Source: Promethearchaeota archaeon (lineage in GTDB: Archaea; Asgardarchaeota; Lokiarchaeia; Sigyniarchaeales; SOKP01). From it: a stretch of 64,000 nt of DNA. The notes beneath the pieces are model-generated. The model saw nothing but the letters and a program-made list of their open reading frames with translations, made no database searches and was not told the origin of the DNA. This document shows positions 1-19,216 of the stretch, in pieces. The position numbers and the translations under genes were made by a program. The stretch spans positions 1-64,000 of the forward strand of contig JAHLWP010000017.1 in assembly GCA_019057865.1 (NCBI GenBank), written 5' to 3'. How positions within the stretch are numbered: the stretch's first letter is position 1; the number at the start of each line of letters is the position of its first letter.

Positions 1-17
1 ATGTACTTAGGACCACT

Positions 18-1976
18 ATGAAGCATTCTTCGATTGAATCACAGGCACAAGTAAGTGAGATGAAAAATAGTTTGCAGACCCAATCCTTAAAGGATGCGGG
101 GGGTCAGCTTGTTATGTCTACTCTTATGCTATTTAGTGGTTTCTTACTGGGTACATTTGTTCCTGTGGCTATAGCAGGTTCTTTAGCACCCGTTGTTATT
201 ACAATGGTGAATTCCAAGATTGCTAAGGATTGCTCAATTAAAACAATGCTTGAAGACTCGGTTGATATTCAGGCAGGGTTGGTTCCTCAGCCTTTGCAAC
301 AATGGTATTTTGAGTTTTCAGATGCGACTCAGTCAGTTTGGTATCATGATTTAGAACAGGCTTTACTTGATGTGACGAGAGCCCTTTCTGAACCACAAAA
401 ACCTGTTATCACTCAAGAGATGATTGATAAAATTAAAGCTTTAGGACCACAATCCCTTGTTGAGAAGATGGCGCTAGAGCAAGGGCTACCATTAGAGAGA
501 GTTGGAGACTTTTTCACCTTGTTACCTTCTCGAGGGGCTGCCCATCCATCGATTAAGTTGCTCGAAAGAATTCGTAATATACTCTCCAGTATTGCCTCAG
601 TTAAAAAGTGGGGTGGTAGAGTCACAGATGCAGAATTTCAACGAGTATTGGGTTTTGGAGATTCTTTCATTAAGAAAATTAATAAAAAGATATCAGCTGG
701 TGTAGGTCATAATTTTGATACCAATTCGCTGCAAAAGATGGAGTTAAAGATAAGATCTTTTTCTGAAAAAGGTTATTATCTTGCACGTGCTGCAGTAAAT
801 ATTTACTTGAGTAAATACGATAGTAAAGGGAGACTTATACATGATATAGGAAGAGTTTTTGCTCAACATTTGAAGAAGCCCATCTCTACTCGAAGTCTAT
901 CTAAATTAATTGGTAGATCATCTAGTTATTTGCAGGATTTTATAACAGGCATGCATTCTAAGACTGGTTTACCTCGTGAAGATATTTTTACACATTCAGT
1001 TTTACATATTTTAGTCGATATTTTTAATTTAAAGCATACAAAGATGGGTATTGATTCATGGGTTCTTGAAGATATTAAAGAAGAATGTTTTAATGTAGTT
1101 CAAGATTTTCTAATTGATGAAGGTAAGCTTGATAAATCAGCCAAAAAGCAATTTAAAGTAATTTTCAGTGTCACTCATACATTATCAAAAGCTACTAATT
1201 CTTTTTATTCACCAGCAAGGCTTAGTTTAGAGATGAGTCAACAACTTTATGGAGGAGATAATACACAAGTAATTACGACAAAATTAGTTGACGGTTCTAA
1301 AATTGATACCAAGCAATGCAAGTGGCTAAAACGTAAGCTTAGAGCTTACATATTACATGCGACTCCTGAGGTACTTGGAACTATTAGAGATATTAATTTG
1401 TATTATAAAAAGTCGAGTAGGACAAGGACAAAATATCATCCAAGATGGTATGATCCGGATATAGTAGCTGAGCATTTATATACTTTACTTATAGAACAAT
1501 TAGGATTTTGTGCTTTAACATTAGAACCACTTGAGGATAAATGTAAAGATCCACTTATTGGTTGGATAAGACATCATATTGATGAAGATACAATGAGCAT
1601 TGATCTTGATAAATTGGCAATAATTATTTCTAGGATTCATGTGAGTTCTAAATATTTACCTCATAAATATCAAGCAGGAGTGTCTAAGCGAGACGTATTG
1701 CGAGTTAGGGCTCGGATATTATATAATCGAAAAGTAATTAAGGATTTAATTGATTTAGATAAAAAGATTATTGATGAAAATGACTTACCACTAGCGTTTA
1801 GAAAGCAGTTTAGAAAGCAAGAGTATATTGATTTATTTATTAAACGTAGAAATGAATTCAGGCAAAGGGGTGAAGATATATTTTTTGAGCCAGGTGGTTT
1901 TTATGAGAATTTTTATCAACTATATAAAAATCAGTGGTTTTGGAGCACTCATTATCTCAACTTTTTAAAATTTTAA
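18..1976 (+). CDS. C-terminal part of a large protein: hydrophobic segment, degenerate HTH-like repeats, HNH-like nuclease domain (probably 5'-partial)
   Basis: Frame is open to the window edge (GTA CTT AGG ACC ACT ATG). Contains EQLGFCALTLEPL...IRHHIDEDTMSIDLDKLAIIISRIH (HNH-like) and HTH-like segments VTDAEFQRVLGFGDSFI and ISTRSLSKLIGRSSSYL. Confidence 0.6.
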   Translation: MKHSSIESQAQVSEMKNSLQTQSLKDAGGQLVMSTLMLFSGFLLGTFVPVAIAGSLAPVVITMVNSKIAKDCSIKTMLEDSVDIQAGLVPQPLQQWYFEFSDATQSVWYHDLEQALLDVTRALSEPQKPVITQEMIDKIKALGPQSLVEKMALEQGLPLERVGDFFTLLPSRGAAHPSIKLLERIRNILSSIASVKKWGGRVTDAEFQRVLGFGDSFIKKINKKISAGVGHNFDTNSLQKMELKIRSFSEKGYYLARAAVNIYLSKYDSKGRLIHDIGRVFAQHLKKPISTRSLSKLIGRSSSYLQDFITGMHSKTGLPREDIFTHSVLHILVDIFNLKHTKMGIDSWVLEDIKEECFNVVQDFLIDEGKLDKSAKKQFKVIFSVTHTLSKATNSFYSPARLSLEMSQQLYGGDNTQVITTKLVDGSKIDTKQCKWLKRKLRAYILHATPEVLGTIRDINLYYKKSSRTRTKYHPRWYDPDIVAEHLYTLLIEQLGFCALTLEPLEDKCKDPLIGWIRHHIDEDTMSIDLDKLAIIISRIHVSSKYLPHKYQAGVSKRDVLRVRARILYNRKVIKDLIDLDKKIIDENDLPLAFRKQFRKQEYIDLFIKRRNEFRQRGEDIFFEPGGFYENFYQLYKNQWFWSTHYLNFLKF

Positions 1977-1987
1977 TTATCTTTTTT

Positions 1988-2821
1988 TTAAAGTAAAAAG
2001 TTTTTAAGGTCTTTACTCATTTCGGAGTTTATTTTTTTATCAAAATTTTCAGAAGCATATTCTGCTTTATAAAATACTGGACAGTCCTTCTCAAAAAGCT
2101 TACATGTATATTCATTAGGATTATTTCTTGTTTTAGAGATAGTACATAAAAATCCATAAGGGCACATTTTGAGTTCGTGGCAAGGTTTAAAAAACTCAGG
2201 CCGTAAATATTTGCTAAGATGTCTAAACCGTATACGCTCAACAGTATCACTTAACTTTTGTTCGGGGAATTTTTTGGAATCTTCCGTAATTTCCTCAGAA
2301 ATATAAAAAACTGGACAATCATGACCAAAGATTTTACAAGTATATTTAGTCTGTTTCCTTCGAATCCTAAATGCTTCAGTTACACCACCATAAGGACACC
2401 AATTAAGATTATAACATGGTTTTTTTGCATTATCATTTACTATAATGCCTTTATTAAACCATCTTTTAGGATCTAAATTCTCCTGCATATCGTGATAACA
2501 ATCTTCACAAAACCATCTATCATAATAAGAATCGTAAATCATATCTTTATCAGAAATATCTCCCTTACAAAATCCTGAACAATGTAATATAGAATGATGA
2601 TAGGTATTTAAAAGATCATTATACTCTTTATTAAGTTGAATTCTTCTCTTTTCATCAATAGGAGAATATCCATTAAAATATCGATTTTTCCAAGCCATTT
2701 CACTAGATTTTGATATATTCTTAAGTCTTTTCTCAATTACAAGTGAAAGCATCCTCCTTAGATTTTTCCTAATATTTTTTAAACTTTCATGTTTTATTAC
2801 GATTTTTCGTCCATCTTTCAT
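1988..2821 (-). CDS. Cys-rich Zn-finger protein, paralog of 48803..49378, with a duplicated KPC-x5-CPYG...C-x2-F-x2-DCPVFY module
   Basis: N-terminal KIVIKHESLKNIRKNLR and SDKDMIY-x6-WFCEDC match the 48803 protein; internal repeat visible in the translation. Confidence 0.75.
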   Translation of the reverse strand: MKDGRKIVIKHESLKNIRKNLRRMLSLVIEKRLKNISKSSEMAWKNRYFNGYSPIDEKRRIQLNKEYNDLLNTYHHSILHCSGFCKGDISDKDMIYDSYYDRWFCEDCYHDMQENLDPKRWFNKGIIVNDNAKKPCYNLNWCPYGGVTEAFRIRRKQTKYTCKIFGHDCPVFYISEEITEDSKKFPEQKLSDTVERIRFRHLSKYLRPEFFKPCHELKMCPYGFLCTISKTRNNPNEYTCKLFEKDCPVFYKAEYASENFDKKINSEMSKDLKNFLL

Positions 2822-2934
2822 TTCTAAAGATAAAAAACTGATAAATATATTTTAACTGAAAATGAATATTCTAATGATAAAAAAAGAATTTTGATATATA
2901 AAATTAAAGGTTAATAAAGGATTAGAATATTAAT

Positions 2935-2961
2935 TATTGGTCCAATAAATTGGGCGTATAA
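2935..2961 (-). repeat. Stranded, synonymously recoded copy of the 3' end of the 3088..5343 gene (LYAQFIGPI)
   Basis: tta tac gcc caa ttt att gga cca ata versus ttg tat gct caa ttc atc ggt ccg ata at 3118..3144: 9/9 residues identical, 7/9 codons differ. Confidence 0.85.
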
Positions 2962-3087
2962 GCATTTTTTAAAGCTTACATGATTTTTTAATATTAAATT
3001 GATTATCTCTCAGGATAATGACCTGCTATCGATTCTCTTTAATTATATAGAGTTTTAAAAAGAAAGAATAGATTAAAAAAGACCTTT

Positions 3088-5343
3088 TTACTTTATAGGG
3101 CGAGAATTCGCCTGGAATATCGGACCGATGAATTGAGCATACAATTTTGCATACTGAGACTGATTGCTCACAATACTAATCATATCACCTTCTTTGGCAG
3201 TGTAAGGGCCGATTATGGTCTCTTCCGCGTCCCGGGTCACTGCGAAAAACTCACCGGCAGTGGATAATTGTCTGAATTGAATATTCCCAAGTTGCTTCAT
3301 CTTCGCGATAATGCCGGCATATTTGCTCAAATCCCATTGGGAGGTAAGCATGAATCGTGCCGCCTTTCTCTGAAAAGCAAATTCAGAAACGACTTGTAAA
3401 ATTTCAGGGATTACAACGGGAGTCACAATAATTATCGATGATTTTGTTCTATATACAGCATCTTTTATGGCTGCAATCATTGCATCGCGTCCAACTACAT
3501 GCCAAGTTGTAACTTTAGACCTTTCTGGAATTGAACTAGATGCATGATGGATATCCTTCAATTTATCTTCATTATTTTCAGCTAATTCTGTACTATCATC
3601 GATGGAATTCATGAATTGGAGCGTAAAATCAGCGATGGCATCTTTAATATTCTGTGTGGTGTCACGAGTAGTATTTGATAAACTATTTTGTAATGTTTTC
3701 GCATTTTCTTCATATTTGGATTTATGATCAGCTAGCATATCTGTTAAACCTTTATCTAATTCACTAGTTTCTCCATTCCATAATTGAATCTCGCTATTAA
3801 TTTTATCAGAGCAATCTCTTTTCCCTCCAGAAAATTTACTATCTACATCTCTAGTCCAGTTTTCATTAATTCTTTTAATTTCAGTGTCAAAATCAGTGTA
3901 ATGTCTTAAAGAGCCTTCTTTATGCCTATTAATTGTTTCGTCATATTGTTTATGATGTTGTTTTAAAGTACTTTCTGTAGAATCCTTTAACTTTAAGTTG
4001 GTATCAGAGCAGTCTTTTACACCACTTTGCAGTGTATTGTTAATTTCAGACGCCATATCTGTCGCTAAGCTCTCTAATTGTGCATCAATTGTCTCTTGAG
4101 CTTTGTAATCAAGATCAGTGGTTTCAGAGCCTAGTCCATCATTTTCTTTAGTCATTATATCAGTCACGTCGGTTTTTATCTGATCAGTTGTTTCTCTGGT
4201 CGTAGTAATATAATCCTCACTCGTTTTAACAAAATCATCTTTCATAGGTTCAGTGTAAGTTAATATATTTTGTATGGTAGTCTCATGTCTAGCTTTATAT
4301 TTTTTCTTTTTTCCAAGCCAGAAAAATCCTTTTTTAGCCATATCTTCTGAAAAATCAGTAAAACGATTAGCATGTTCTAGAAGATTATCAATTAAAGTAA
4401 GAGTCATACTTTTAAATTCATTAGTTTGATCAGTTAATATTCTATGTCTTTCATCAACAGTTGCTTTTAAGTTGGTTTGAAGTATATCAGTAGTGTTTTT
4501 CACATGATTCATATGCTCTTTTAATAGGCCAGAAATTCTTTCTTTTAAATCAGTAACTACCTTATCCATTCTCTCGAGATATTTTTCTAAAATCTGTTCC
4601 ATTTTTGGTTTTAGTTCCTTTGCAGTATTCTTATGTCTTTCTACGTGCTCATCTAACTCCATTTTCAATTCTTTATCTAAATTCTCCACACGAGTTGAAA
4701 AATCATTTAACAAATCTGCAATTAAAGTTGTTAAATTATCTTTTGTTTTATTGACAGTTGACTCATTGTCACCTACAGCTGTAGTTGAAATATTCTTTAA
4801 ATCAGTGTTTAATGTACCCATTATTGAGTGAATATTAGTCTCTAATTCTTTAGTAGTTTCTGTAAAGCGAGTTCTTGCATTATCAATTTTATTTTTCTTA
4901 ATATTATTTTTTGAGTCAGAATCTTCGAAAAATGCTTTAATTTGGCCATCAACAGCAGTTTCAACTTCTCCTATACTTTTGTTTTGTATAGCTTCAAGTT
5001 TTTCAAAACGGTTAGATTGATCTGCTAAGATATTATCTTTTATTTTAGCAATTTCATTTCTAAAGAGTTCTGATTCAGTTGTAAATAATTCGAAGTAGGG
5101 TTCAAGAGGGATGTATCTATCTACAATACCTTCAACTCTTTTAAGAAAACCTTTCTCAACTAACCAATTTGTAATTTCTAATACTTTCTCATAGGTTAAT
5201 TCCTCATGTTCCTCGGTTAGAGTCATGTATACTTCAGAAGCTGTTGCACGAGGCACTCTTAAATAAACTATATATATATTAATCTGTTCTTCAGCGAATC
5301 CATACCTCGTAAATACTTCTTTAGTGAATTCTTTTAACGACAT
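3088..5343 (-). CDS. TrmB-family-like regulator: N-terminal wHTH, about 500-aa helical insert, C-terminal PLD-like effector domain
   Basis: YGFAEEQINIYIVYL...ATASEV...LVEKGFL (TrmB HTH) and WHVVGRDAMIAAIKDAVYRTKSSIIIVTP (TrmB/PLD-like C-domain). Confidence 0.7.
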   Translation of the reverse strand: MSLKEFTKEVFTRYGFAEEQINIYIVYLRVPRATASEVYMTLTEEHEELTYEKVLEITNWLVEKGFLKRVEGIVDRYIPLEPYFELFTTESELFRNEIAKIKDNILADQSNRFEKLEAIQNKSIGEVETAVDGQIKAFFEDSDSKNNIKKNKIDNARTRFTETTKELETNIHSIMGTLNTDLKNISTTAVGDNESTVNKTKDNLTTLIADLLNDFSTRVENLDKELKMELDEHVERHKNTAKELKPKMEQILEKYLERMDKVVTDLKERISGLLKEHMNHVKNTTDILQTNLKATVDERHRILTDQTNEFKSMTLTLIDNLLEHANRFTDFSEDMAKKGFFWLGKKKKYKARHETTIQNILTYTEPMKDDFVKTSEDYITTTRETTDQIKTDVTDIMTKENDGLGSETTDLDYKAQETIDAQLESLATDMASEINNTLQSGVKDCSDTNLKLKDSTESTLKQHHKQYDETINRHKEGSLRHYTDFDTEIKRINENWTRDVDSKFSGGKRDCSDKINSEIQLWNGETSELDKGLTDMLADHKSKYEENAKTLQNSLSNTTRDTTQNIKDAIADFTLQFMNSIDDSTELAENNEDKLKDIHHASSSIPERSKVTTWHVVGRDAMIAAIKDAVYRTKSSIIIVTPVVIPEILQVVSEFAFQRKAARFMLTSQWDLSKYAGIIAKMKQLGNIQFRQLSTAGEFFAVTRDAEETIIGPYTAKEGDMISIVSNQSQYAKLYAQFIGPIFQANSRPIK

Positions 5344-5375
5344 AAATTTTTCTCCATATTTCGATTAAAAACAAA

Positions 5376-5409
5376 ATGAATTCTATATTAATATGAATTC
5401 TATATTAAT
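5376..5409. repeat. Perfect 17-bp tandem duplication (ATGAATTCTATATTAAT x2) upstream of the TrmB-like gene
   Basis: Read directly from the sequence. Confidence 0.85.
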
Positions 5410-5597
5410 ATTTTAATCTGAAAGGATTTAATAATATTTTCATAATGATTAAATAAAAACTTAAGGTTTTAAGCAGTTGATTTTTTCTTCTTAAATCTTC
5501 TCTGTAATTTTTCCTTTAATTGGGAAAAGTTATTCCTCAATCCTTTTTATATCAATTTAATTCTTTTAAGTTAGACCAAATTAGGTGTTTAAAGAAA

Positions 5598-6269
5598 ATG
5601 AAAAAATTTAATAAAATTTTACTGGGAGCTTTTGTTTTTATGGCACTAATTTCTATAGTTAACATAAGTAATGTAGTAGCAGCATCGCCTTTAGATATTC
5701 CAACAGATGAATATAGTGGTACTCTAGAGCCAGGCGAAAATGTAATACGATTTCGTAATCAAACACAGATACGTATAGATTGTGATCATTGTGTTTGTAT
5801 AAACATAGAATGTGAAGCTTTGAAGATTGGAGCAAAGGATTTTATATTAGAGCTTAGTACACCTGGCGATTGTCTAATGAGTATGAATTGTACTGAAGAA
5901 CAAGCTGAGCTTGGATTATTAAAAGGTCATAGGGTTCAAACAAGAACCCGTAATAGATATACTTATAGAGAAGGATTCTGTATTTCAATAGGATGTAATT
6001 GTTCAGAAATCCAAGCAAGATTACGCATTAAAGCATCAATCCATAATAGAAATGGTGTTTGGGCATATTATAAAGGTGACAAATGGGTTCCTGTTCCTAC
6101 AACAATTGAAGATGACTATTTAACTGCGGAAGTGGATCACTTTTCTTCGTGGACTATTTTAATTCCAATAGGTGTAGAAAATTTTGTATTTTATGTTGGT
6201 ATTGCTGCTATAATAGGAGTAATTGCTGTAGTTTCAGTTGCTTTTCTTAGAAAAAGAATACAACAATAA
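5598..6269 (+). CDS. Secreted, C-terminally membrane-anchored Cys-rich surface protein
   Basis: ATG at 5598 follows SD-like AGGTG; signal peptide MKKFNKILLGAFVFMALISIVNISNVVAA; VDHFSSWTIL motif; C-terminal TM helix plus RKR. Confidence 0.75.
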   Translation: MKKFNKILLGAFVFMALISIVNISNVVAASPLDIPTDEYSGTLEPGENVIRFRNQTQIRIDCDHCVCINIECEALKIGAKDFILELSTPGDCLMSMNCTEEQAELGLLKGHRVQTRTRNRYTYREGFCISIGCNCSEIQARLRIKASIHNRNGVWAYYKGDKWVPVPTTIEDDYLTAEVDHFSSWTILIPIGVENFVFYVGIAAIIGVIAVVSVAFLRKRIQQ

Positions 6270-6348
6270 GCAACCAATTTTTTAAAACTAAAATTTTTTT
6301 TATTTTTATTAATTAAATTAAGAAAATATTACCAAAAATTGAACTTAT

Positions 6349-7605
6349 TTGATTTTTAATAGAAGAATTACGAAGAAAAAGCATCGGTTAAAAATTTTAT
6401 TCGTATTTATTCTTATTCTTGAGTTTAATTTTTTTTTTTTTTATGTATTAGCTAGAGATAAAGATATTCTAGATTTTTGGACAGAAGATACAGTCAACCC
6501 TGGAGAACATGTTTCTTATTATTTTCCAAATAATATTATATTTGAAATTTCAACAGATTCTCTAATAGATCTCTATATAGAATATGATAACAATATAAAA
6601 AATCGCCAATCTTATTTTATGTTTAGCAACAATGAGTCTATGTCTTTAAATATAACGTCAAAAATAAGCATGAAAAGCTATGGTATCTCAAATATCCCCC
6701 CAAATCCAAAAAAAGGAAATTTTCAGTTGAGATACAAATATAATTGTATTTTTAGAATAAGGTCCAATACTTCAATTGAAAATTTAACTATTATGCATCG
6801 AAAAAATAGTTTTTATGGATTAAGACCTAGTATCAATTACTCTTTGGCGATATATGAAATATATCAAGACTCGTGGGAATTAATTGACACAGAAGAGAAG
6901 GTTAATGAATCAACATCTGAACCATATTTAGAAGGTACTCTTTTAGGTATTGGAGGAGGTATTGATTATTTTGTCACACTTTTTGAGTTTACTGTAGAAC
7001 CTTATGATTGGACATGGTTGATAATAACAATACTAATAACTGCTGTTAGTATTTTATCAATAGCATTATTAATATCAAAAAAAGATTATTTTCAGTATCT
7101 AAAAACAAGAACTATCTCAATTGAGAAAGGTGCTCATAGATTATCTTTAGATGAGGTTTTGGAAAACGAAAATCGAAGCAAAATTATTGAACTAATTTTA
7201 AATGAGCCTGGAATTCATTTTAATGAATTATTACGAAAGACAGGCCTTGCTGCTGGAAACATAGTATGGCACCTTGATATTCTTCAGACTTACAAAATAA
7301 TTGGAAAAAAGAGAGTAGGCAACTTTATTGCTTATTTTCCTTATTATCAAAAAAATCCTATTTCTAATATTGATTTAAAGTTACAAAAAAGTAAATTCAC
7401 TTTAGAAATACTAGAAATGATTGAGCAAGATCCAGGAATATGGAATAGTTTAATTACTAAAAAACTCAAGGTTGATCATAAAACAATACAATACCATATT
7501 AGGAAATTAGAGGAATTAGGCTTGATAAATTTTAAAAAAGAAGGAAGGAAGAAAAAAATATTTCCCAACTTAGATTCTGAATATTTCAATAGGAAGAAAT
7601 TGTAA
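6349..7605 (+). CDS. Membrane-spanning transcriptional regulator: ectodomain, TM helix, tandem cytoplasmic winged HTH domains
   Basis: N-terminal hydrophobic segment; TM WTWLIITILITAVSILSIALLIS; LENENRSKIIELILNEPGIHFNELLRKTGL...WHL and a second PGIWNSLITKKLKVDHKTIQYHI. Confidence 0.8.
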   Translation: MIFNRRITKKKHRLKILFVFILILEFNFFFFYVLARDKDILDFWTEDTVNPGEHVSYYFPNNIIFEISTDSLIDLYIEYDNNIKNRQSYFMFSNNESMSLNITSKISMKSYGISNIPPNPKKGNFQLRYKYNCIFRIRSNTSIENLTIMHRKNSFYGLRPSINYSLAIYEIYQDSWELIDTEEKVNESTSEPYLEGTLLGIGGGIDYFVTLFEFTVEPYDWTWLIITILITAVSILSIALLISKKDYFQYLKTRTISIEKGAHRLSLDEVLENENRSKIIELILNEPGIHFNELLRKTGLAAGNIVWHLDILQTYKIIGKKRVGNFIAYFPYYQKNPISNIDLKLQKSKFTLEILEMIEQDPGIWNSLITKKLKVDHKTIQYHIRKLEELGLINFKKEGRKKKIFPNLDSEYFNRKKL

Positions 7606-7848
7606 AAGCTTATTTTATTTATTCTTAATCAATTTATCATGATGTATTTATTCCATTTCAATGATATTGCTAATTATTCTCTAAAAAAGGAGAAAGAGTT
7701 TTAAATTTAAAATTTAAAATTATTAATTCTGAAACTCATTTAATATTAAATATTGTCATCATTTTAAATCATAGTTAATTTAAGATTTGATTTAATAATT
7801 TTTAATTCAATAAAATGATAATAATTATATTAAAAATAATGAACTGTA

Positions 7849-8355
7849 ATGATAGATCCCGAAATATTTTTGAAATTTCTAAAAAGTCGAAGGAGTATTC
7901 GAAATTTTCAAGAAAAACCAATTTCTGATAAAGAAATAGATATGATTCTAGAAGCAGGTCGATGGGCACCTTCAGCTAATAATCGACAACCATGGAAGTT
8001 TATAGTTATAAAAAATAAGGAAATTTTGAAAGCTATCTCTAAGATAGCACGTTATGGAAAATTTATAGAACAATCACCAGTAGTTATTGCAATTGTTGGT
8101 AAAAAGAAAGTAAGTTCTAAATGGTATTTACAAGATACTTCCTTAGTTTCAATGAATATGATGCTAATGGCATGGTCGTTAAATATTGGGACTTGTTGGA
8201 TTGGAAATTTAAATAGAGAAAAAGCAAAAGAAATATTAAAAGTATCTAAAGATGATTTTCTTTTAACAATATTACCATTTGGATATATTAAAGGAGAAAT
8301 CCCTCAACCAACCAATAGAAAAGATTTAGATAAAATTAAGAGAGAAATTGTTTAA
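7849..8355 (+). CDS. Nitroreductase family protein
   Basis: RRSIRNF, APSANNRQPWKF and GTCWIG motifs. Confidence 0.92.
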   Translation: MIDPEIFLKFLKSRRSIRNFQEKPISDKEIDMILEAGRWAPSANNRQPWKFIVIKNKEILKAISKIARYGKFIEQSPVVIAIVGKKKVSSKWYLQDTSLVSMNMMLMAWSLNIGTCWIGNLNREKAKEILKVSKDDFLLTILPFGYIKGEIPQPTNRKDLDKIKREIV

Positions 8356-8369
8356 AAATATTAGCTATA

Positions 8370-9539
8370 TTATATAATAAGTATTATTAAATCCTCAAGT
8401 TCCTCAGGAGCTTTAGTTAATTTCATGTATCCATCCTCAGTAATTAATACAGTATCAGAATGGCGAAATCCCCCTATATTAGGTATATAAATTCCAGGTT
8501 CAATACTAATTAACATATTTGGTTCAAGTTCATGATCGTATCCTTCGGCAATAAAAGGGGCTTCATGACCAGTAATACCTAGACCATGTCCCGTCCTATG
8601 AAGCAAAAAATCACCATAACCTTGTTCATTAATAAATTTTCGCACTTTTTTATCAATCTCACTCATTACAACTCCAGGTTTTAATAAATCATAAGCTAAA
8701 GACCTGGCGTTAAACATTACTTCAAACGGTTTTTTTGCTTTTTCAGGAATATTACCTAAAAAGAATGTTCTTTCAATTTCTACTCCATAACCATCAACCT
8801 GTGCTTGAATCATAGAAACAGGTGGTCCACCTTCTTCCATCTCAGCAAAAATATTTGGTACTAAATGAGGATCATGCGATATAGATGGTGGCTACACTAC
8901 TCCCATAGTGTCTGTTACTTTAAAATTAGCATTGGGTATATCTTGCACTATTTTGGAGGTCATAGCATCAGTAACTTCCTTATATAAAGCAAATTCGAGA
9001 ACTCTAGGCCGACATTTTTTGAGTAATACTCTGTGCCCCTTATTGGCAACCTTACACGCATGTATAGTCCTCCCAATCTCATAATCAGTTTTTATTATGC
9101 GCACTTCTTCGAGGATATCAGTAACTATTTGATAACCCGGTGTTTTATTAACAAAGCCGACAGGCATTATTGATTCTACTCCAACCTTTGCATCTTTTTC
9201 AATCAATTCTTGATAAAGATCATGCCAATTTTCCCCATCTCTGGCAGGAAATTCATAATAAGTCACAGTATCAACATCACATCTAACTCTCTCTTCAAAA
9301 TGTCCTTTTTCTAACAGTGGAATCAACATCTTCGGTAAACCTTCTATAGGTATTACCAAAATAAAAGGTCGTTCATGAACATAGAAAGCAAAGTTAGTTA
9401 AGTAATATATGTTCACAGGATCAGAAGATACATAGTAGTCCAAATCCTGCTCTTTCATCTTCTCTCTTACTCTTTCTAAACGATCAGACAACTCTTCTCT
9501 ACTTGGTGGAGAAGTAATAGCTTTTATTTTAGTACTCAT
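8370..9539 (-). pseudogene. Xaa-Pro peptidase (M24B) interrupted by one in-frame TAG at 8892..8894
   Basis: The two track ORFs are in the same frame and read MGVV*PPSISHDPH...; HRTGHGLG, HEAP and EPGIY metal motifs are intact. Confidence 0.8.
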
Positions 9540-9629
9540 TATTCTTTCCTACATTTTAATTATGTAATTATAATCATATAATATTAAATAATAAATATAG
9601 CTTTATTAGATGGTAAAGAATATAATAAG

Positions 9630-11222
9630 ATGAGCTTTGGATATTTTGGTTTAGTATTGCATGGTCATATTCCATGGTGTAAAAAATCTGGAACTTGGCC
9701 TGCAGGTGAAGAATGGGTCATGGAGGCTATGAACGAGACATATATTCCTATGTTAAATATTTTGAGGGAATTGAAAGAGGATGACATTAAAACAGCGATT
9801 ACTATAAATATTACGCCAATATTAGCTGAACAACTAGCAGATGAATACATGAAACAACGATTTTCAGAGTACATGGAAAATTTAATCTCAAGAGCAAAAA
9901 ATGATATTAATAGATTTGAAAACCATCCTGAACGAAGAAGAATTACTGAATTTCATTTAAGAAATTTTGAGCATGTATTAGATACTTTTTATCATAATTA
10001 TTATAGAGATATCTTAGGGAGTTTTAAATGGCTCCAAGATAAAGGGATGATTGAATTAATAACATGTGGAGCAACACACGGTTTTTTACCACTTTTTGAG
10101 AGCGATTCTGGAATTTTTTCTCAAATTCAGTTAGCCTTAGATACTCATAAAAAGTATTTCCAAAGAGAACCAAAAGGCATCTGGCTTCCTGAATGTGCTT
10201 ATCGGCCTAAAGAATACAGAGATGGTAAACTTCGAGAGAGTATTGATTATTGGTTGAATAATTCTGGTATAGAATACTTTTTTGTTGATTCTCATGGAGT
10301 TTTAAATGCTGAGATACTTGAGCAGAAGAATGAAATAGGATTAAATACAAATTTTGGATACAATTTAGAAACTGGTGTATCAGTATTTGGTAGAAATAAG
10401 AATATAAGTAGACAAGTTTGGGATGCAAAAATAGGATATCCTGGAAACGAACATTATAGAGAATTTCATAAAAAGGATCAAGAATCGGGATTACATTATT
10501 GGAGAATTACTAGTAAAAATTTAGGAACAGGGGAGAAACAATTATATAATATTGAAAAGTCAGAAGAAGTAGTTGAATCTCATGCAACTCACTTTGTTTC
10601 ATTGATTATCGAAGAGTTAAGACAATTCTCAGAAAAATTTTCAACAAACGGGATTATTGTCTCTCCTTACGATTTTGAACTTTATGGTCATTGGTGGATG
10701 GAGGGAATATTATGGTTAAAGAAAGTCTTTGAAATGATTCAAAACTATGAAGATATAGAAATGATCACTATTTCTGACTACATTTCCAAATATAAAGATA
10801 ATTTTTCAATAATTAGGATTGGAGAAAGCAGCTGGGGTGAAGGTGGTCATTTTCAAGTTTGGAAAAATCCGGAACATGGTTGGGTTTGGCCTTACATCAA
10901 TGGATCAATAAAGGAATTTGAAAATGTTTTAGAAGTTAACCCTAATCCCAATAATTGGGAAAGAAGGATCTTACAGCAGATAGCCAGAGAATTATTGTTA
11001 ATGGAAGGTAGTGATTGGCCTTTTCTACTCTATACTAAACAAGCAAAAGAATATGCAAATATGAGATTTCATCATCATCATCAAAGATTTAACAGGTTAA
11101 TTTGGCAAGCCAAAGATTTTAAAGATATCAACAGAATATCCTTAGAAACATTAGAGGAAATTGAATCCATAGATAGTTGTTTTCAAAATATAAACATTAA
11201 TTATTTTAAAAGAATTAAATAA
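9630..11222 (+). CDS. GH57 1,4-alpha-glucan branching enzyme
   Basis: LHGHIP, ATHGFLP, GIWLPECAY, PYDFELYGHWWMEG and SDWPF motifs. Confidence 0.93.
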   Translation: MSFGYFGLVLHGHIPWCKKSGTWPAGEEWVMEAMNETYIPMLNILRELKEDDIKTAITINITPILAEQLADEYMKQRFSEYMENLISRAKNDINRFENHPERRRITEFHLRNFEHVLDTFYHNYYRDILGSFKWLQDKGMIELITCGATHGFLPLFESDSGIFSQIQLALDTHKKYFQREPKGIWLPECAYRPKEYRDGKLRESIDYWLNNSGIEYFFVDSHGVLNAEILEQKNEIGLNTNFGYNLETGVSVFGRNKNISRQVWDAKIGYPGNEHYREFHKKDQESGLHYWRITSKNLGTGEKQLYNIEKSEEVVESHATHFVSLIIEELRQFSEKFSTNGIIVSPYDFELYGHWWMEGILWLKKVFEMIQNYEDIEMITISDYISKYKDNFSIIRIGESSWGEGGHFQVWKNPEHGWVWPYINGSIKEFENVLEVNPNPNNWERRILQQIARELLLMEGSDWPFLLYTKQAKEYANMRFHHHHQRFNRLIWQAKDFKDINRISLETLEEIESIDSCFQNININYFKRIK

Positions 11223-11264
11223 TATTTTTTCCTGGAATTAATAAATTCTTCATGAATTTCATGG

Positions 11265-11813
11265 CTATAAAATAAAGATTGCTGCTGCTAATACAGATGC
11301 CCATTCTTCCTCTTCTCTAACTGATGCATGAGAGGTAATATTTTTAGTCTCAACAATCTTTCCTCCCATTTTAAAGACTTCTCTTTTTTCATCATAGTTC
11401 GCATTGGGATCAAACGGAATTCCCAGAGTAGTTGCTAACATTTCTGCTGCTAGATCTTCAGCGATATCTCCAACTATTTCAGGATTCACACCAAAAGAAT
11501 GATGTTCACTCAAATACCCATATTGACCTTTATCAGCAGGTTTTGCTACTCCTATAGAAGCACAAATTAAACGATTATATTCATTGGAGTCTGCTCTTGC
11601 CAAAACAGTAAATACTATTTGACCGGGACGTAGTTGTTTTAATCCATCCTCACTATTTATCTCAATACAATAGGCAGGAAGTATTGAAGAGACATTGACC
11701 AGATTATATTTTTCAATTCCAGCATCTCTGAGAGCTTGTTCGAAAGCTGCTAGCTTAGTTTTGTGAAATCCTTGACCTTTAACAAAAAATACCTTTTTTG
11801 GGACGAGAGCCAT
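11265..11813 (-). CDS. pdaD: Pyruvoyl-dependent arginine decarboxylase
   Basis: AFEQALRDAGIEKYNLVNVSSILP self-cleavage motif and GYLSEHH. Confidence 0.92.
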   Translation of the reverse strand: MALVPKKVFFVKGQGFHKTKLAAFEQALRDAGIEKYNLVNVSSILPAYCIEINSEDGLKQLRPGQIVFTVLARADSNEYNRLICASIGVAKPADKGQYGYLSEHHSFGVNPEIVGDIAEDLAAEMLATTLGIPFDPNANYDEKREVFKMGGKIVETKNITSHASVREEEEWASVLAAAIFIL

Positions 11814-12067
11814 CGTTCATTCCTCCTAATATTATTAAATATTAATTAAGAATTAATTATAAATGGTAATATTTAAATTTACTTAAAATATAGAAATATA
11901 TTAATAATTTTAAATAATAAATCAAATTAAGTATAAGAATTCATTTATTCGGTAAAGTTAATTTGAGTTTATATGAAAAAAGAATGGTTTATAAAATTTA
12001 ATCACAAAGATCATTAGAAGCAAAAAAAGCTAATTTAATTCAAAAATTTAAACAGGATAATCTAAAT

Positions 12068-13365
12068 CTAAGCGTCCTCTAATTTTATCACATTATTCAA
12101 TTCTTCATAAGCTTTGTTTTTACTGTCTTCATCATGTTGACATTCTATTATCCTCCAAAATCTATATTCATGGTTAAGATAAGCAGGACAGTCCATTTTT
12201 ATATCATCAGGACAATTTGTAATCTGCCAGCATTGAAAATTAGTTTCTTCAAAAAATTTATGGAATTTTTTTGGCAACTTTTTATAATCAAACTGAGTCT
12301 CTTTAATGTAGTTGTCCAAATCATTTGAATTATAGGTGTTCCAAAATAGTATAATTTTATTCTTGTTTTCTTCCTTTATAAGGAAATCAAACATTCCTGC
12401 CATTGCTTTTCCCGTATAAGTAGTTTCTAAATCAAATCCTTTTTCTTTCCCTTCCAATTCAAATATGGTATCTACGGCTTTTTGCCCTCTAATTGTTTTC
12501 ACACCATATCCAGATCCCAAATAACATTTTATTAATTCAAAATCATCTTCAGTAACCTTTAATTTTGGGAAGTTTTTATCTTTTTTATGTAAATATTTAA
12601 GAGCTTTACTCGCATTTCTAGCTAAATTAGAGCTATTAACAATGAAATCTTTAACCACTGCTACTGCATAAACTTTAGTTTTAAGTCCTAGTAATTTACA
12701 ACCTGCTATTAATCCTGCTGCTGTTCCTGTAGTACCAGCTGCTATAAATATTATATCAGGTTCAGAGATTTGTCCTTTTTTAATTTGCTCATTTAACTCT
12801 AAAATTGCTTCTATAAAACCAACTATTCCTAAAGGAGTTCCTCTACCAATTAAAGGACTTCCTCCTGGAAGTATAAAATCATATTTACGGTGAAAAATCC
12901 AAAAAAATAAGGCTTTAATATATGTACTAACGTCTCTTTTACCAAAATGTAGTTTTGCTCCAAAATAATCATATAGTAATAATGATCGTTGTACATGCCA
13001 AGTGAGAGGTTGATTAAGAGAAATAAATCACATTTTAATGGGGGATTTAATATATTACAAGCAATTAAACAAGCTAATCCATGATTTGTGCCAATACCTC
13101 CACAAGTTATAATTGCTTTCTTCTTCTTTCTTTTAATTATATTTCCAAAGATGAATTCAAGCTTCCGGAGTTTATTACCACCATAAATTTGGTGATTTTT
13201 ATCATCTCGTTTAATGTAAATTTGACCATCCTCTAAATTAAAATATTTTTCTAGTTTAGTTAATCTTTCCACAGGTGTAGGCACATTAGTAAGTAGAGGT
13301 ATCCAAGGAACTTTTTCCTTCAGATTGGGATATTCTTTAAATAAGAGAGGTTCTATTCGTTCCAT
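12068..13365 (-). pseudogene. PLP-dependent ACC deaminase/D-cysteine desulfhydrase family enzyme with one frameshift near 13016 and a Cys-rich C-terminal extension
   Basis: KRDD...GGNKLRKLE; adding one T near 13016 gives FLFNQPLTWHVQ...PGGS...AAGTTGTAAGL, continuing into LETTYTGKAM. Confidence 0.8.
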
Positions 13366-13442
13366 ATTGATTAGAATACTGAATTAATAATAAAATTTTA
13401 TAATGAGAGAGAAAATTAGAATTTTGTTTAATATTTTAAGAT

Positions 13443-14219
13443 TTAGTGCTTTTCTTTCACAAACTTTTCAAGCCTCTGTTTCAGTTCTTCAGATTGACCT
13501 GTTAAAATCATTGCTCGTAATTCCTTGGCTAGTACCGATTCAAGATTGTCGTCTTGGTTTTCATTTATCAATTTTTTTGCCCATTTGAGAGCTAAATGAT
13601 CTTTTTGTACTATTGAATTTGCTGTACGTCTAAGAATTCTTTTTAGTCCTTCAGGCTTACAAACATGATTTACTAATCCGATATTAAGAGCTTCTTCAGC
13701 ATTAATTTCTGTGCCTAGATACATTAATTGTTTTGCTCGACCTTCACCAATAATTCTTGGCAATAATTTTGTAGATGCATTAGAAAAGAATAGTCCTACT
13801 CCTAGTTCTGGGAGCATTATCCTTGTATCATTTGCTGCGATTCTTAAATCACAATATAATAACTGCTCAAATCCTCCCCCAATAACCCAACCATGAAGAC
13901 CAGCAATAATCACTCCTGGATGAGCTATCATAGCTCTTGTTAAATTTTGAAAGGATTCCAAAAACTCTATAGCTTCAGCTAATCTTTCTCTACTTGTAAG
14001 TAGATCATATCCATATTTCAGGTCAGCACCTACAGTGAAATGTTTCCCATTAGCTGCATAAATAACACAAACGTCATTATTCTCAGCACTTTTTTTAAAA
14101 GCATTAATCAATTCTTTAAGAGTTACTAAATCTAAGGTATTTCGCTGTTCTGGTTTGTTTAGTGTTATTTTTCCAATATCTCCTTGTTTTTCATATAAGA
14201 TAATTTCTTTTTTCATCAT
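13443..14219 (-). CDS. Enoyl-CoA hydratase/isomerase
   Basis: ITLNKPEQRN, FTVGADL, GWVIGGGFE...CDLRIA, PELGVG; start more likely 14219/14216 than 14279. Confidence 0.9.
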   Translation of the reverse strand: MMKKEIILYEKQGDIGKITLNKPEQRNTLDLVTLKELINAFKKSAENNDVCVIYAANGKHFTVGADLKYGYDLLTSRERLAEAIEFLESFQNLTRAMIAHPGVIIAGLHGWVIGGGFEQLLYCDLRIAANDTRIMLPELGVGLFFSNASTKLLPRIIGEGRAKQLMYLGTEINAEEALNIGLVNHVCKPEGLKRILRRTANSIVQKDHLALKWAKKLINENQDDNLESVLAKELRAMILTGQSEELKQRLEKFVKEKH

Positions 14220-14319
14220 CTTTCTCCATATCAGATTCATTATGAATAAAAAGTTCTTATATAAGAAATTATTTTTCATTTTTATACAAAATTTAATTTT
14301 CAGTAAAAAACCATAAATA

Positions 14320-15939
14320 ATGATGAATAAAAAATTGGATATTCCTAAGTATGATTATCTATGGCAATATGTAAAACATTGGGCTTCGATAGATCCTGAA
14401 TTTCCTTTTATAAAATTCAAATGGAAAAAATACAATGCGAAAGAATTCTCTGATACAGTTGATCATTTAGCTGAAGCTTTTCTAGATCTAGGGGTAAAAA
14501 AAGGTGATACAATTGTAACAATATTACCCATGATTATAGAATATGTTTTAATATACTTTGCAGCTAATTCTATTGGTGCAATTTGTGTACCAATGGATGT
14601 CCGTTTTAGATCAGCAGATTATAGGCGTTTTATCCACCATGTAGACCCTAAATTAGTATTTCTAATAGGAAAAGCACGTGGATATAATATTGCCAATATT
14701 ATTAAAGAATTAAGTTCAGAGTTTAACTCTAAAATCAAATACTATATAATAGGAAGAGATGAATACGGAAATCCATTTGAAGAATTATTAACAAAAAACT
14801 ATAAATTAAGTAATGAATTAAAAGCAGTACAGTTAAAATTGAGTCCTGATGACGGTGCTCTAATTATCTTTACTGGTGGAACTACAGGTGTACCAAAAGC
14901 AGCAATGTTAACTCATAGAAACATTGCGCGAGCAAGTTATTTAGAAGCGAAGTACATTAAGGATAAAGGGGAGCCTTTAGGATTAAAACCTAGATTTAAA
15001 ATGATTAACAATTTTCCACCTAGTCATGTAGGCGGCTCTGTCGAAATCATGGGTACCATTATTGCTGCAGGATGTGAAATAATTTTACAAGAACAATGGA
15101 ATCCATATGCAGTGTTAAGAACAATAAGAAAATTAAAATTACAATTGATTGGTGGCGTTCCAACAATGTATGCAATAATGTTAAGTTTACCAGATTTAGA
15201 TAATTTTGATTTATCTTCATTAGTTTTAGCTGTAGTTAGTGGAGAGAAATTGAGCATGGAACTTTTAACTGGTATGAGAGATAAAATCTGCCCTAATATT
15301 ATCAATGCTTATGGAAGTACAGAATCAGGTCCAGAAGTTACATTTACAGATATAGGTGATCCATTAGAAGAATTAGCTAATGGTTATATTGGTAAATTAT
15401 TACCTGATCAGGAGATGAAAATAGTAGATGAGAATGATAATGAACTGAACTCAGGAGAAATTGGCGAAATGTTGTTTCGAGGTTCTTTAACTATACCCGG
15501 ATATTATAAAATGCCCGAGGAAAACAAAACAACTTTCACTATAGATGGTTGGTGCAGATCTGGAGATTTAGGTTATATCACTAAGGATAGTAGAATATAC
15601 ATTAAAGGAAGAAAGAAATTTATTATTCGAGTAGGCAGTTATACAGTATTACCATCTGAAGTAGAAAGTGTAGTTATTGAACACCCTAAAGTAGCTATGG
15701 TCGCAGCTGTTGGAGTTCCTGATAAAATTTATAATGAGGTAATATGGCTTGCTGTCGTCCCAGAATCCGGACAAGAAATCAATGAAATTGAAATAATAGA
15801 AATGTGCAAAAAAGATTTAGCAGATTTCAAAGTTCCTAAAAAAGTTATAATTAAGAAAGAACTTCCTATTACTCGTTTAGCTAAAATAGATAGACCAACG
15901 CTCCAAAAACAAATTATAGAAGAATTTAAGTTAGTTTAA
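14320..15939 (+). CDS. Acyl-CoA synthetase (class I adenylate-forming enzyme)
   Basis: FTGGTTGVPK, YGSTE, SGDLG and GRKK motifs. Confidence 0.92.
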   Translation: MMNKKLDIPKYDYLWQYVKHWASIDPEFPFIKFKWKKYNAKEFSDTVDHLAEAFLDLGVKKGDTIVTILPMIIEYVLIYFAANSIGAICVPMDVRFRSADYRRFIHHVDPKLVFLIGKARGYNIANIIKELSSEFNSKIKYYIIGRDEYGNPFEELLTKNYKLSNELKAVQLKLSPDDGALIIFTGGTTGVPKAAMLTHRNIARASYLEAKYIKDKGEPLGLKPRFKMINNFPPSHVGGSVEIMGTIIAAGCEIILQEQWNPYAVLRTIRKLKLQLIGGVPTMYAIMLSLPDLDNFDLSSLVLAVVSGEKLSMELLTGMRDKICPNIINAYGSTESGPEVTFTDIGDPLEELANGYIGKLLPDQEMKIVDENDNELNSGEIGEMLFRGSLTIPGYYKMPEENKTTFTIDGWCRSGDLGYITKDSRIYIKGRKKFIIRVGSYTVLPSEVESVVIEHPKVAMVAAVGVPDKIYNEVIWLAVVPESGQEINEIEIIEMCKKDLADFKVPKKVIIKKELPITRLAKIDRPTLQKQIIEEFKLV

Positions 15940-16044
15940 TCTAATATCAAATCTTATTTATAGTATTATTTTATATTTTTATTATTGAGTAAGGAAAATC
16001 TAAAATTACAATTTTTTCTATATTGTTTTATATAGTGATACAAT

Positions 16045-17571
16045 ATGGTTTTAGAGAAGCTGAAACCAACAATTGTTTGGAATATTTTTGAAAATGTCGT
16101 TGCTAGTACCCCTAGACCCTCCAAACATGAAGAGAAAATCCGCAATAAGATTAAGGACTGGATATCTGAGCAAAAAAGAATAACTAACATTAATTTTAAA
16201 ATCTATGAAGATAATATTGGAAATTTATTAATTAAGAGACCCGCTTCAAGAGGAATGGAATTAAGTCCTTCTATTTTACTTCAAGGACATCTAGATATGA
16301 TATGCGTCACAGAGCGGTCAGAAGGGTATAATTTTTTTGAAAAGGGGATTCCATTACGAATCCAAGATAATAATGAGTGGATAGATGCCGATGGAACAAC
16401 ATTAGGAGCAGATAACGGTATAGGAATAGCATTAGCACTTGCTCTTCTAATAGAAAAAGAAATTGAAGAACCTCATGGACTTATTGAGGTGCTTTTTACT
16501 GTTAATGAGGAAGATGGATTCACAGGAGCAACTAATCTTGATGTTAAAGCGCTTAATATTACAAGTAAATATATGATAAATTTAGATAGTGGACCGCAAG
16601 GAGAAATTATTATAGGGTCTGTTTGTGGAAGAAGAACTTATTTTAGGAAAAAGTTTGAATGGATAAAACCAGAATCAAAAGAGGATTTAATATTTATTGA
16701 ACTCGCTATTAATGGACTTTTAAGTGGCCATTCTGGAGGTGATATTCATCTTCCTAGAGCAAATGCAAATAAATTAGTAACTAAGATACTATCTGCTATA
16801 ATTCAAAAAATTGATATATATATTTGTAATTGGAATGGGGGTATCAAAGGGAATATTATTCCTAGTGAATCTAAAGTAAAATTTGCAATTAATTCAAAAG
16901 ATCAAAATTTATTTGAAAATTTAATTGATAAAGAAATTTCCGCCTATTATGACTATTATAAAAGTATTATATCTAATCCGCCCAAATTGGAGCCAAATTT
17001 ACAAATTGAATGGAAGACAGGAGAATCAGAAGATTTTCTATCTTTAATAGATACAAAAAATGTCATTTATACATCACACATCATTCCTCATGGAGTTATC
17101 CGTAATTCTCCTTTTTTTGAGAACTTTGTAGAGACTTCAAATAATTTTGCAACTGTTAAGACAGAAAATAATGAGATTGAATTTCAATTATATCCTCGTA
17201 GTATTATACGTACAGAACTAGATAATTTCTGTCGTAGAATGATTCACTTAGGAGAATTAACAGATTGGCAAATTACATTACGTTCCGTCTTACCTGAATG
17301 GAAACCACGACCAGAATCAAAGTTCCTAAGGTATGTTAAAGAACAATATGAAGATCTCTTAAAAAAACCAGTTAAAGTCAATGTAATACATGGAGGATTG
17401 GAGACTGGAATGATAAGTAAAAAAATTCCAGGAATAAATATGATCTCTATTGGTCCTACAATAATTGGGGAACACACAACTAATGAAAAAGTGAAAATAT
17501 CTGATGTTGGAAGGGTCTATGGATTATTAATTCAGATTATAAAGAATTTTCCAAAATCAATATTAACTTAA
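16045..17571 (+). CDS. pepD: Aminoacyl-histidine (beta-Ala-His) dipeptidase, M20C
   Basis: PRPSKHEE, QGHLDM, TTLGADNGIG, GHSG, HGGLETG. Confidence 0.9.
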   Translation: MVLEKLKPTIVWNIFENVVASTPRPSKHEEKIRNKIKDWISEQKRITNINFKIYEDNIGNLLIKRPASRGMELSPSILLQGHLDMICVTERSEGYNFFEKGIPLRIQDNNEWIDADGTTLGADNGIGIALALALLIEKEIEEPHGLIEVLFTVNEEDGFTGATNLDVKALNITSKYMINLDSGPQGEIIIGSVCGRRTYFRKKFEWIKPESKEDLIFIELAINGLLSGHSGGDIHLPRANANKLVTKILSAIIQKIDIYICNWNGGIKGNIIPSESKVKFAINSKDQNLFENLIDKEISAYYDYYKSIISNPPKLEPNLQIEWKTGESEDFLSLIDTKNVIYTSHIIPHGVIRNSPFFENFVETSNNFATVKTENNEIEFQLYPRSIIRTELDNFCRRMIHLGELTDWQITLRSVLPEWKPRPESKFLRYVKEQYEDLLKKPVKVNVIHGGLETGMISKKIPGINMISIGPTIIGEHTTNEKVKISDVGRVYGLLIQIIKNFPKSILT

Positions 17572-18465: not shown

Positions 18466-18715
18466 AACGATCCTTTAACTCAAGAATTTGAAAGATTTAA
18501 AGGTTTTTAATGTCTTAAATGTTTGGATTTATTTCTATTAGTTCCCTTATTTTTTTAAGTTAGTACACTAGTGGAACATTAATTTTTGAGTTTTAATTTT
18601 TATGAATTATTGGAGTTTTTATTGTTTTTTGAAAAATATAATATGGTTAAGTTTGTATTGACCATCTTAAATTACATTTAATTAAAATAGAAATAATCGA
18701 AGGGGTTTAATAAAA

Positions 18716-18880
18716 ATGCAATATTATTGTCCCAATTGTACGAGCATGAAAAAACCTAAAATAATAAGGTATTTTCCTCCCATAACAGTAAGGTGTTCGG
18801 ACTGTGGTTATATAAATTTTGAAATAAAATTTATCAAGGATGAGAAAACTAAATACACATCAATTCAATACTCTTATTAA
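18716..18880 (+). CDS. 54-aa zinc-ribbon microprotein (not in the ORF track)
   Basis: MQYYCPNCTSMKKPKIIRYFPPITVRCSDCGYINFE...; AGGGG SD-like motif upstream. Confidence 0.7.
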   Translation: MQYYCPNCTSMKKPKIIRYFPPITVRCSDCGYINFEIKFIKDEKTKYTSIQYSY

Positions 18881-18920
18881 TTCTCCTATATTTGGTGATA
18901 TAATTTTTTTTTTATTTATT

Positions 18921-19097: not shown

Positions 19098-19216
19098 AAT
19101 TAATCCATAAACAATCTCTATTTTTAAAGACATCTATTGAATTCATAATTCATAAATATCTAACGAAATCATTATTAATTATTACTTTAAATCAATTTGA
19201 TATTTTAAAAAAAAAG

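Follow-up and report, generated by a model that had tools for sequence, protein, structure and literature searches.

A re-spelled copy of a gene tail in a strain-variable island of a Loki-type Asgard archaeon and its recurrence in related lineages

The gnd gene beside the rfb O-antigen cluster of Escherichia coli is a flanking gene co-transferred with a hypervariable locus, and the free-standing homing endonucleases of T4-like phages (seg and mob genes) are known for marker exclusion. In Vibrio cholerae, the effector-immunity clusters of type VI secretion (the T6SS) undergo sequential displacement, for which homology-facilitated illegitimate recombination was proposed (Kirchberger et al. 2017, PMC5361080), and C-terminal displacement is described for rhs genes (Jackson et al. 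2009, PMC2935791, as reported in PMC5361080). That type of recombination was shown in transformable bacteria and in E. coli conjugation, according to the passages on it in PMC5361080 and PMC3240628 (de Vries and Wackernagel 2002; Prudhomme et al. 2002; Meier and Wackernagel 2003). Here we analyzed a 64,000-nt stretch (hereafter, the window) of a Promethearchaeota archaeon (genome G000; GTDB lineage Archaea, Asgardarchaeota, Lokiarchaeia, Sigyniarchaeales, SOKP01; NCBI GenBank assembly GCA_019057865.1, contig JAHLWP010000017.1, positions 1 to 64,000), in which a 751-aa gene is followed by a short copy of codons from its own end, or tail, spelled with different codons (hereafter, the relic), and then by a Cys-rich gene (the cargo gene). 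The gene in the window lies on a contig cited as C30, and other contigs of the genome are cited in the same way (C3, C31, C48 and so on). Probably, in our reading, the relic is the tail fragment of another allele, stranded inside a strain-variable island where islands and cassettes are repeatedly turned over by tail displacement.

As in T6SS and rhs displacement, the conserved part of the gene would be the homologous anchor, a new 3' end would arrive with one or more neighbouring genes, the older 3' piece would be pushed downstream, and repeated events would give arrays. Unlike in those systems, the gene here is no toxin and its tail no variable functional tip, and the swapped tail differs in synonymous codons only; the relics are very short (9-20 codons), the host is an Asgard (Loki-type) archaeon, and in G000 no cargo separates the two ends. 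The locus also does not resemble a polymorphic-toxin array of the Rhs, CDI or T6SS kind, as the tail is invariant in amino acids and neither toxin nor immunity families were detected by Pfam in the open reading frames (ORFs) of the cargo or island. With homology-facilitated illegitimate recombination it would share one homologous anchor, one illegitimate joint and the loss of recipient DNA, while differing in that the process in Asgard archaea is deduced from scars only and in that the joints cluster at one place. Like gnd, the gene is conserved, mosaic and placed beside a hypervariable island, with synonymous divergence climbing toward that island (identity of G000 and G012 falls from 98-99% to 78-83%); gnd, in contrast, has no stranded tail copies and borders polysaccharide loci under diversifying selection, whereas no function is assigned to the cargo here. 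Homing of the T4 type would explain site-specific borders, co-conversion gradients beside an inserted gene and protective synonymous differences in the target, but no endonuclease domain was detected in any cassette, and phage homing leaves no duplicated gene end. What is new here is that such scars recur behind a single gene in several Loki lineages, their borders almost coinciding, together with a tail that is rich in GC at third codon positions and native.

A re-spelled copy of the gene end

The peptide LYAQFIGPI is encoded twice in a single frame of one strand, at an offset of 183 nt (Table 1), and the relic sits 126 nt past the live stop codon, on its 3' side. The first-pass annotation of this DNA had reported the nine-codon repeat at about 125 bp past the stop with 7 of 9 third positions changed, and this is confirmed: the live and relic 27-mers mismatch at 7 of 27 nt, all of them third positions and all synonymous, and their longest shared identical run is 5 nt. 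The probability that seven random changes all land on third positions is 4e-5. The similarity breaks off sharply past the ninth codon, from where the live gene reads FQANSRPIK and stop and the relic INILILY and stop, and 5' of the relic nothing is convincingly gene-like. The relic is therefore both headless and tailless, lying in an open frame of 32 codons that has no start codon and meets its stop 7 codons past the copy.

A genome-wide control was based on 2906 ORFs of at least 150 aa, with identical 8-mers of the last 60 aa sought within 3 kb downstream; it returned 35 same-strand loci and 0 opposite-strand loci. In addition, a contig from a separate, unrelated study (run X3) spans positions 2840-3190 with zero differences from the window, which rules out an artefact of the G000 assembly at the junction. 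Given the synonymous-only changes, the clean opposite-strand control and this independent assembly, the relic is real and was formerly coding under selection; it is a genuine coding-derived fragment of another, once functional, allele of the gene tail. A paralog as the relic source was rejected, as the C-terminal 170 aa are encoded only once in the genome and no DNA repeat of the region occurs at another place.

Oligo-T runs such as those at the start of the spacer between the live stop and the relic are a terminator-like feature in archaea. Past its first ~50 nt the spacer (2962-3087) had no match in any related locus, and no related locus matched the spacer, relic or promoter DNA. A perfect 6-1-6 palindrome, TATTGG-A-CCAATA, lies inside the relic; the palindrome TATTGGNCCAATA was dismissed as a repeated site, having only 2 occurrences genome-wide. 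The inverted repeat TAAGC-N10-GCTTA noted in the first pass is present and does overlap the 5' border of the relic, yet it is a single site in the window and does not occur at other relics. Its proposed likeness to a TAAGC(T)nAAA junction motif did not hold up, since the motif TAAGCTTTWAAA shows no enrichment (5 sites versus 6.8 expected). The AAGCTT within the repeat may be read as Lys-Leu codons, and it also starts the relic of L174.

Breakpoints, the variable island and recurrence in other lineages

A recombination-breakpoint analysis against orthologs, named in the first-pass annotation as a way to check its claims, revealed breakpoints and a mosaic phylogeny. The nearest relative, metagenome contig L115, is 97.3% identical to G000 across the gene. 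From -300 to -23 relative to the gene end the two are 98.9% identical (3 differing sites in 278 nt), and the GC-rich positions 3181-3240 fall inside this segment; the last 22 nt hold 6 synonymous differing sites (Fisher p = 5.6e-6 versus the preceding 278 nt). The allele switch relative to L115 is confined to the last 22-73 nt (last 8-24 codons), with a crossover interval at 3110-3160. As the live LYAQFIGPI DNA equals that of L115, these codons are native, and by this comparison the live gene appears native down to its last codons, with the final 22 nt likely imported.

In L115 the gene is followed by 144 nt of intergenic DNA and a convergent Fae-like gene, with neither island nor relic, and the last 117 nt of L115 are 100% identical to G000 C48:9694-9810. 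Relative to L115, the native last codons and the 144-nt spacer are gone from G000. The island would comprise window positions 1-3087 and C48:1-9693, amounting to at least 12.8 kb if C30 and C48 adjoin, as this layout suggests. Neither G012 nor G056 matched window positions 1-3087. Contig C55 of G012 is syntenic with window positions 3089-19699 at 86-96%, and the synteny ends exactly at the stop codon. Along the gene, G000 and G012 are 98-99% identical over the first 1125 nt, about 93% over the next ~700 nt and 78-82% over the last ~230 nt, and in the divergent 3' part 13-17 of 30 third positions differ with almost no amino acid changes. The segment identities among G000, L115 and G012 thus form a mosaic, so the phylogeny along the gene is not congruent.

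Public sequencing runs, viewed as contigs in which rare circular or empty-site forms are not visible, agree with these borders. In X3, the unitig with the relic and tail (2840-3190, depth 35) joins a common unitig (3161-3405, depth 102), and this branch of the assembly graph at 3161-3190 agrees with the breakpoint. In runs X4 and X5 the island form occurs together with a more abundant form that departs right at 3089, and donor-like and recipient-like variants thus share the same sediments. Short loose ends at 2882, 2900 and 2914 were also seen in the run data, and the contigs showed no joints.

Downstream content differs in nearly every species of the genus, with L115 representing the empty site. 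G012 carries a 203-aa ORF after the gene, flanked by 72-nt direct repeats of the post-stop region that are 84.7% alike; the single post-stop copy of L115, which lacks the ORF, matches the distal repeat at 90.6%. The last ~300 nt of the G012 gene are 82.7% identical to G000/L115, versus 94-98% upstream. On these alignments G012 appears to have gained a cassette and a foreign gene end of ~300 nt, with its native post-stop region pushed downstream in a clean displacement, and this gain explains the 3' divergence of G000 and G012 better than a foreign end in G000. The displaced repeat of G012 starts inside a hairpin that directly follows the stop in most orthologs (for example L012, L014, L017 and L115), with an 8-bp stem TTCTGGCA/TGCCAGAA or a 7-bp stem TTGGAAA/TTTCCAA as examples; read in frame, the hairpin is a 12-codon extension FWQ...W before a stop. 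G000 has no such hairpin (window 3050-3087).

The search for relics also covered the gene's flanks in 38 genomes of the genus (up to 15 kb) and in 80 metagenome contigs (up to 10 kb). Headless tail copies were found in five or six further lineages, all downstream of the gene and on its strand, 0.09-1.5 kb past the stop (Table 1). In a six-frame profile search of 1.39 Mb, partial matches rose above noise only at these relics or at contig ends, and the G000 relic itself ranked just above noise. The relics start at codons -20 to -17 in 6 of 7 cases, and borders elsewhere were also seen at -13 (L126) and +17 (G012). Several relics have amino acid changes and truncations. The ORF that separates live end and relic in L174/L180 is homologous to the G000 cargo gene, lacks its last ~20 codons and abuts the relic, and the longest identical run of live end and relic there is 8 nt. 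The relics of L174 and L180 differ from each other at 19 of 63 nt with 0 amino acid changes, their cargo being 87% identical; as they differ only synonymously, either functional alleles supplied tails on more than one occasion or some constraint acts on the relic. L174 also shows a dense synonymous patch at codons -22 to -15 against its relative L148. In L180 the cargo ORF and the relic lie in different frames, so that read-through cannot fuse them there. Judged from these comparisons, the space behind the gene appears to be a recurrent insertion and replacement hotspot in the genus.

In many metagenome-assembled genomes of the genus (G021, G059, G066, G056, G001, G022, G044 and G016) contigs often end 0.1-5 kb behind the gene, and in G000 the contig ends at window position 1; such breaks fit a strain-variable or repeated region that disrupts assemblies. 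In the single-contig genome G006 the gene lies in two overlapping pieces 612 kb apart, C1:2121572-2123140 (aa 1-523) and C1:1508917-1510305 (aa 289-751), and the C-terminal piece has the tail relic downstream.

Similar scars were observed at other genes of G000. For about 12 of the 2906 ORFs, the closing 8-25 codons recur as a short headless copy on the same strand at most 3 kb downstream, several of these copies being recoded with 3-13 nt differences; example ORF ends, in strand coordinates, are C52(+) 53023, C66(-), C37(+) 32589, C82(+) 16679, C3(-), C42(-) and C5(+) 998. An actin-like gene (381 aa) on the minus strand of C31, with its stop at 63919, has its last 21 codons and stop repeated at 63024-63089, 829 nt downstream, with 12 synonymous differences, no amino acid change and a 113-aa ORF between.

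The GC-rich gene end, the gene family and the neighbouring genes

The first-pass annotation had proposed that the live 3' end is foreign, on the basis of hand counts of GC (33/60 at 3181-3240, 12/60 at 4381-4440). Both counts are exact, and the GC content at third codon positions (GC3) is indeed non-uniform along the gene, with 0.48 in the last 100 codons versus 0.21 in the remainder, a value reached or exceeded by just 0.19% of 100-codon windows in the G000 genome. The rise is genus-wide, however: GC3 of the last 100 codons exceeds that of the remainder in 62 of 62 distinct full-length orthologs (mean 0.345 versus 0.235), among which G000 ranks third highest. The GC3-rich tail is a conserved property of the gene across the genus and not an indication of recent import, so the shift is no marker of foreign DNA, and a sharp local GC3 rise alone should not be taken as evidence of foreign origin. 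GC-biased conversion was considered as a general trait of relic-bearing tails and rejected; other such genes of G000 show no consistent GC3 rise, and a simple link to recombination is thus unsupported. The actin gene of G000, presumably highly expressed, likewise has high GC3 (0.36-0.45).

The gene is single-copy in G000; those other genomes of the genus in which it was detected carry it in a colinear position, at 76-97% amino acid identity. Its closing 19 residues, KLY[S/A]QFIGPIFQANSRPIK, are nearly invariant in orthologs; the tail amino acids do not vary across the genus, and the swapped tail encodes the same residues. The putative "TrmB-like" name comes from a Pfam match below threshold (PF01978, 16.7 bits, E 0.0068; cut-off 25.6). 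Against PDB sequences, an N-terminal profile gave only weak AspA matches (E 0.3), and a C-terminal profile from 15 orthologs gave none at E up to 1. The C-terminal 250 aa are not covered by any Pfam family, a TrmB-type sugar-binding/effector domain was not found in them, and NCBIfam gave nothing relevant for the N- or C-terminal parts of the 751-aa protein. Named relatives of the neighbouring gene are assigned to "Promethearchaeota archaeon Loki".

The family of the 277-aa cargo gene recurs behind this gene in four lineages, including G055, L173/L174 and L180, and its N-terminal domain of ~110 aa is multi-copy in the genus, with 1-7 matches per genome. In the proteins P0025-P0028 the Cys4 module precedes a true HNH endonuclease domain. 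An HNH domain suggested earlier for the 652-aa orphan ORF was not confirmed: Pfam gave none, no homologs were found, and the single-sequence AF2 model of the C-terminus was unusable (pLDDT 42).

Table 1. Features of the gene end and island in the window, and tail relics behind the same gene in other lineages
Feature	Position	Strand	Description
Orphan ORF, 652 aa	18..1976	+	Convergent with the cargo gene; frame open to contig start
Cargo gene, 277 aa	1988..2821	-	Cys-rich, two Cys4 modules (KPC..CPYG..TCKIFGHDCPVFY); starts 114 nt after the relic
Island part on the window contig	1..3087	.	Absent from L115 and G012; ancestral neighbour (Fae-like gene) on C48 from 9694 on
Relic, nine codons re-spelled	2935..2961	-	7 synonymous third-position differences; independent assembly agrees
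Inverted repeat TAAGC-N10-GCTTA	2959..2978	.	Single occurrence; contains AAGCTT
Spacer, live stop to relic, 126 nt	2962..3087	-	Starts with oligo-T runs; no ORF
Gene end, 22 nt, likely imported (ANSRPIK and stop)	3088..3109	-	6 synonymous sites versus L115
Live gene, 751 aa	3088..5343	-	Putative N-terminal winged helix, long helical middle, conserved C-terminal domain of ~250 aa, no fold assigned
Last 100 codons	3091..3390	-	GC3 0.48; genus-wide trait of the gene, native in G000
Live LYAQFIGPI	3118..3144	-	Codons -18 to -10 from stop; DNA identical to nearest relative L115
G006 relic	557 nt after stop		FIGPIFQADSR
G063 relic	1.5 kb after stop		YTQFIGFIFQANS and stop; 266-aa ORF between
L173/L174 relic	about 880 nt after stop		SKLYSQFIGPIFQANSRPIK and stop; 23/63 nt differ, 1 aa change
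L180 relic	about 880 nt after stop		Same 20 codons and stop as L173/L174; 15/63 nt differ, 1 aa change
L188 relic	93 nt after stop		RLYSQFIGPIF
L126 relic	131 nt after stop		IGPIFQADS; weak

Origin of the relics and turnover behind the gene

In tail displacement, incoming DNA from related lineages would carry its own version of the gene end together with neighbouring genes, and a homologous crossover would fall inside the 3' part of the gene, with an illegitimate joint on the other side when the scar was first formed. The older tail or post-stop region would be left headless downstream, as under homology-facilitated illegitimate recombination. As to G000, the scar probably predates the transfer, and the entire island including the relic most likely arrived later by an ordinary double crossover, with one site in the gene tail at 3110-3160 and the other beside the Fae-like gene (C48:9694). 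Since the relic lies in island DNA that is absent from L115 and G012, it was most likely imported with the island rather than left as an old native end. As no integrase or nuclease was found, the default explanation is recombination between co-occurring related lineages anchored in the 3' part of the gene.

Several points weigh against tail displacement. Cargo lies between the live and the stranded end in L174/L180 and G063; in G000 there is none (126 nt with no ORF, and the 277-aa gene follows the relic), so the order of live end, cargo and old end is not seen there, and an extra deletion or a cargo-less event is needed. The relic lacks the last nine codons, and the island is split across two contigs that are assumed to adjoin. 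Relic starts cluster at -20 to -17 in at least four independent cases, which random illegitimate joints do not predict, and for the relics of L174 and L180 to differ only synonymously, either functional tails had to be captured independently or the relic had to be under selection. Among 115 live alleles, none was close to any relic (the best had 3-4 mismatches in 27 to that of G000) and none matched the imported gene end.

The clustered borders, which are shared by G000, L188, G006, G063, L174 and L180, favour a homing-type tail swap, in which a sequence-specific nuclease, its gene located in such islands or at another place, would cut the conserved K-L-Y-S-Q-F-I-G-P DNA (around codon -19), repair would draw on a donor with a re-spelled, uncuttable tail plus cargo, and the recipient tail would be joined behind the cargo. 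The truncated cargo abutting the relic in L174/L180, the synonymous patch in L174/L148 and the fusion of the cargo Cys4 module to true HNH domains in other proteins fit such a swap as well. We nevertheless consider it unlikely, because no nuclease domain was found: with E values up to 1, Pfam detected no HNH in either the 277-aa or the 652-aa protein, and tblastn with four HNH proteins over ~100 downstream flanks recovered the Zn-ribbon module only. Borders are also present at -13 and +17, and the clustering may partly result from detectability (at least 8-9 aa) and from common descent (G000/L188, G006/L126, L174/L180). It is likewise doubtful that Loki-type Asgard archaea have an integrase-free, sequence-directed movement of single-gene cassettes into conserved gene ends, apparently also at actin, by a cut at the K-L-Y codons (~19 before the stop) and repair from a donor. 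If cut-and-repair were true, the re-spelled replacement tail would keep the protein intact, block re-cutting and limit cassette loss by repeat recombination, and the recipient tail would be stranded from the cut onward.

The model that the GC-rich live 3' segment (~3100-3420) replaced a native end, of which the AT-ending relic would be the remnant, draws on the strong GC3 outlier status of the tail in G000, on the last ~300 nt being 78-83% identical to G012, and on codon usage: the relic does have more AT-ending codons (7/9 versus 5/9 in the live end), as the first-pass annotation held. It is very improbable, as the GC3 rise extends to all 62 orthologs, island-free L115 shares the GC-rich segment at 98.9% identity, the cassette gain of G012 better explains its divergence, the live LYAQFIGPI is that of L115 with the relic differing at 7 sites, and the absence of relic DNA from L115 and G012 speaks against an old native end. 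Integrative elements typically give islands flanked by duplicated gene ends, and a tyrosine or serine recombinase element that entered the 3' end of the gene carrying a tail mimic would leave an att duplication; its recombinase gene could sit in the gap of the incompletely assembled island. We give this origin very little credence, even slightly less than a foreign gene end, since the two copies share no identical core (longest run 5 nt in G000, 8 nt in L174/L180) and the relic lies 126 nt from the live end instead of at the far end of the island. Furthermore, Pfam detected no recombinase in the seven ORFs of C48:1-9693, the 277-aa and 652-aa ORFs or the one-gene cassettes (those of L174/L180 and G063), the island having an assembly gap. 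Least probable of all is that the copy is a functional site, such as a palindromic operator before the cargo promoter or a translated peptide. The perfect palindrome stands ~60-110 nt upstream of the AT-rich promoter region of the cargo, and the L174/L180 relics retain the peptide despite 19 nt differences; on the other hand, the palindrome follows from I-G-P-I written with AT-rich codons and has only two genomic occurrences, the differing frames in L180 allow no read-through fusion, the G000 relic lacks a start codon and meets a stop 7 codons further on, and amino acid changes and truncations occur in several relics.

On the tail displacement reading, gene content beside a conserved gene turns over via recombination for which the tail of that gene serves as the handle; no integrase is visible, and the scars left behind are datable. 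If the clustered relic borders reflect a specific cut, they would mark a new kind of mobile-cassette mechanism. The setting is that of the closest archaeal relatives of eukaryotes, and the scars could help to chart where insertion hotspots lie and how genes flow between Loki lineages.

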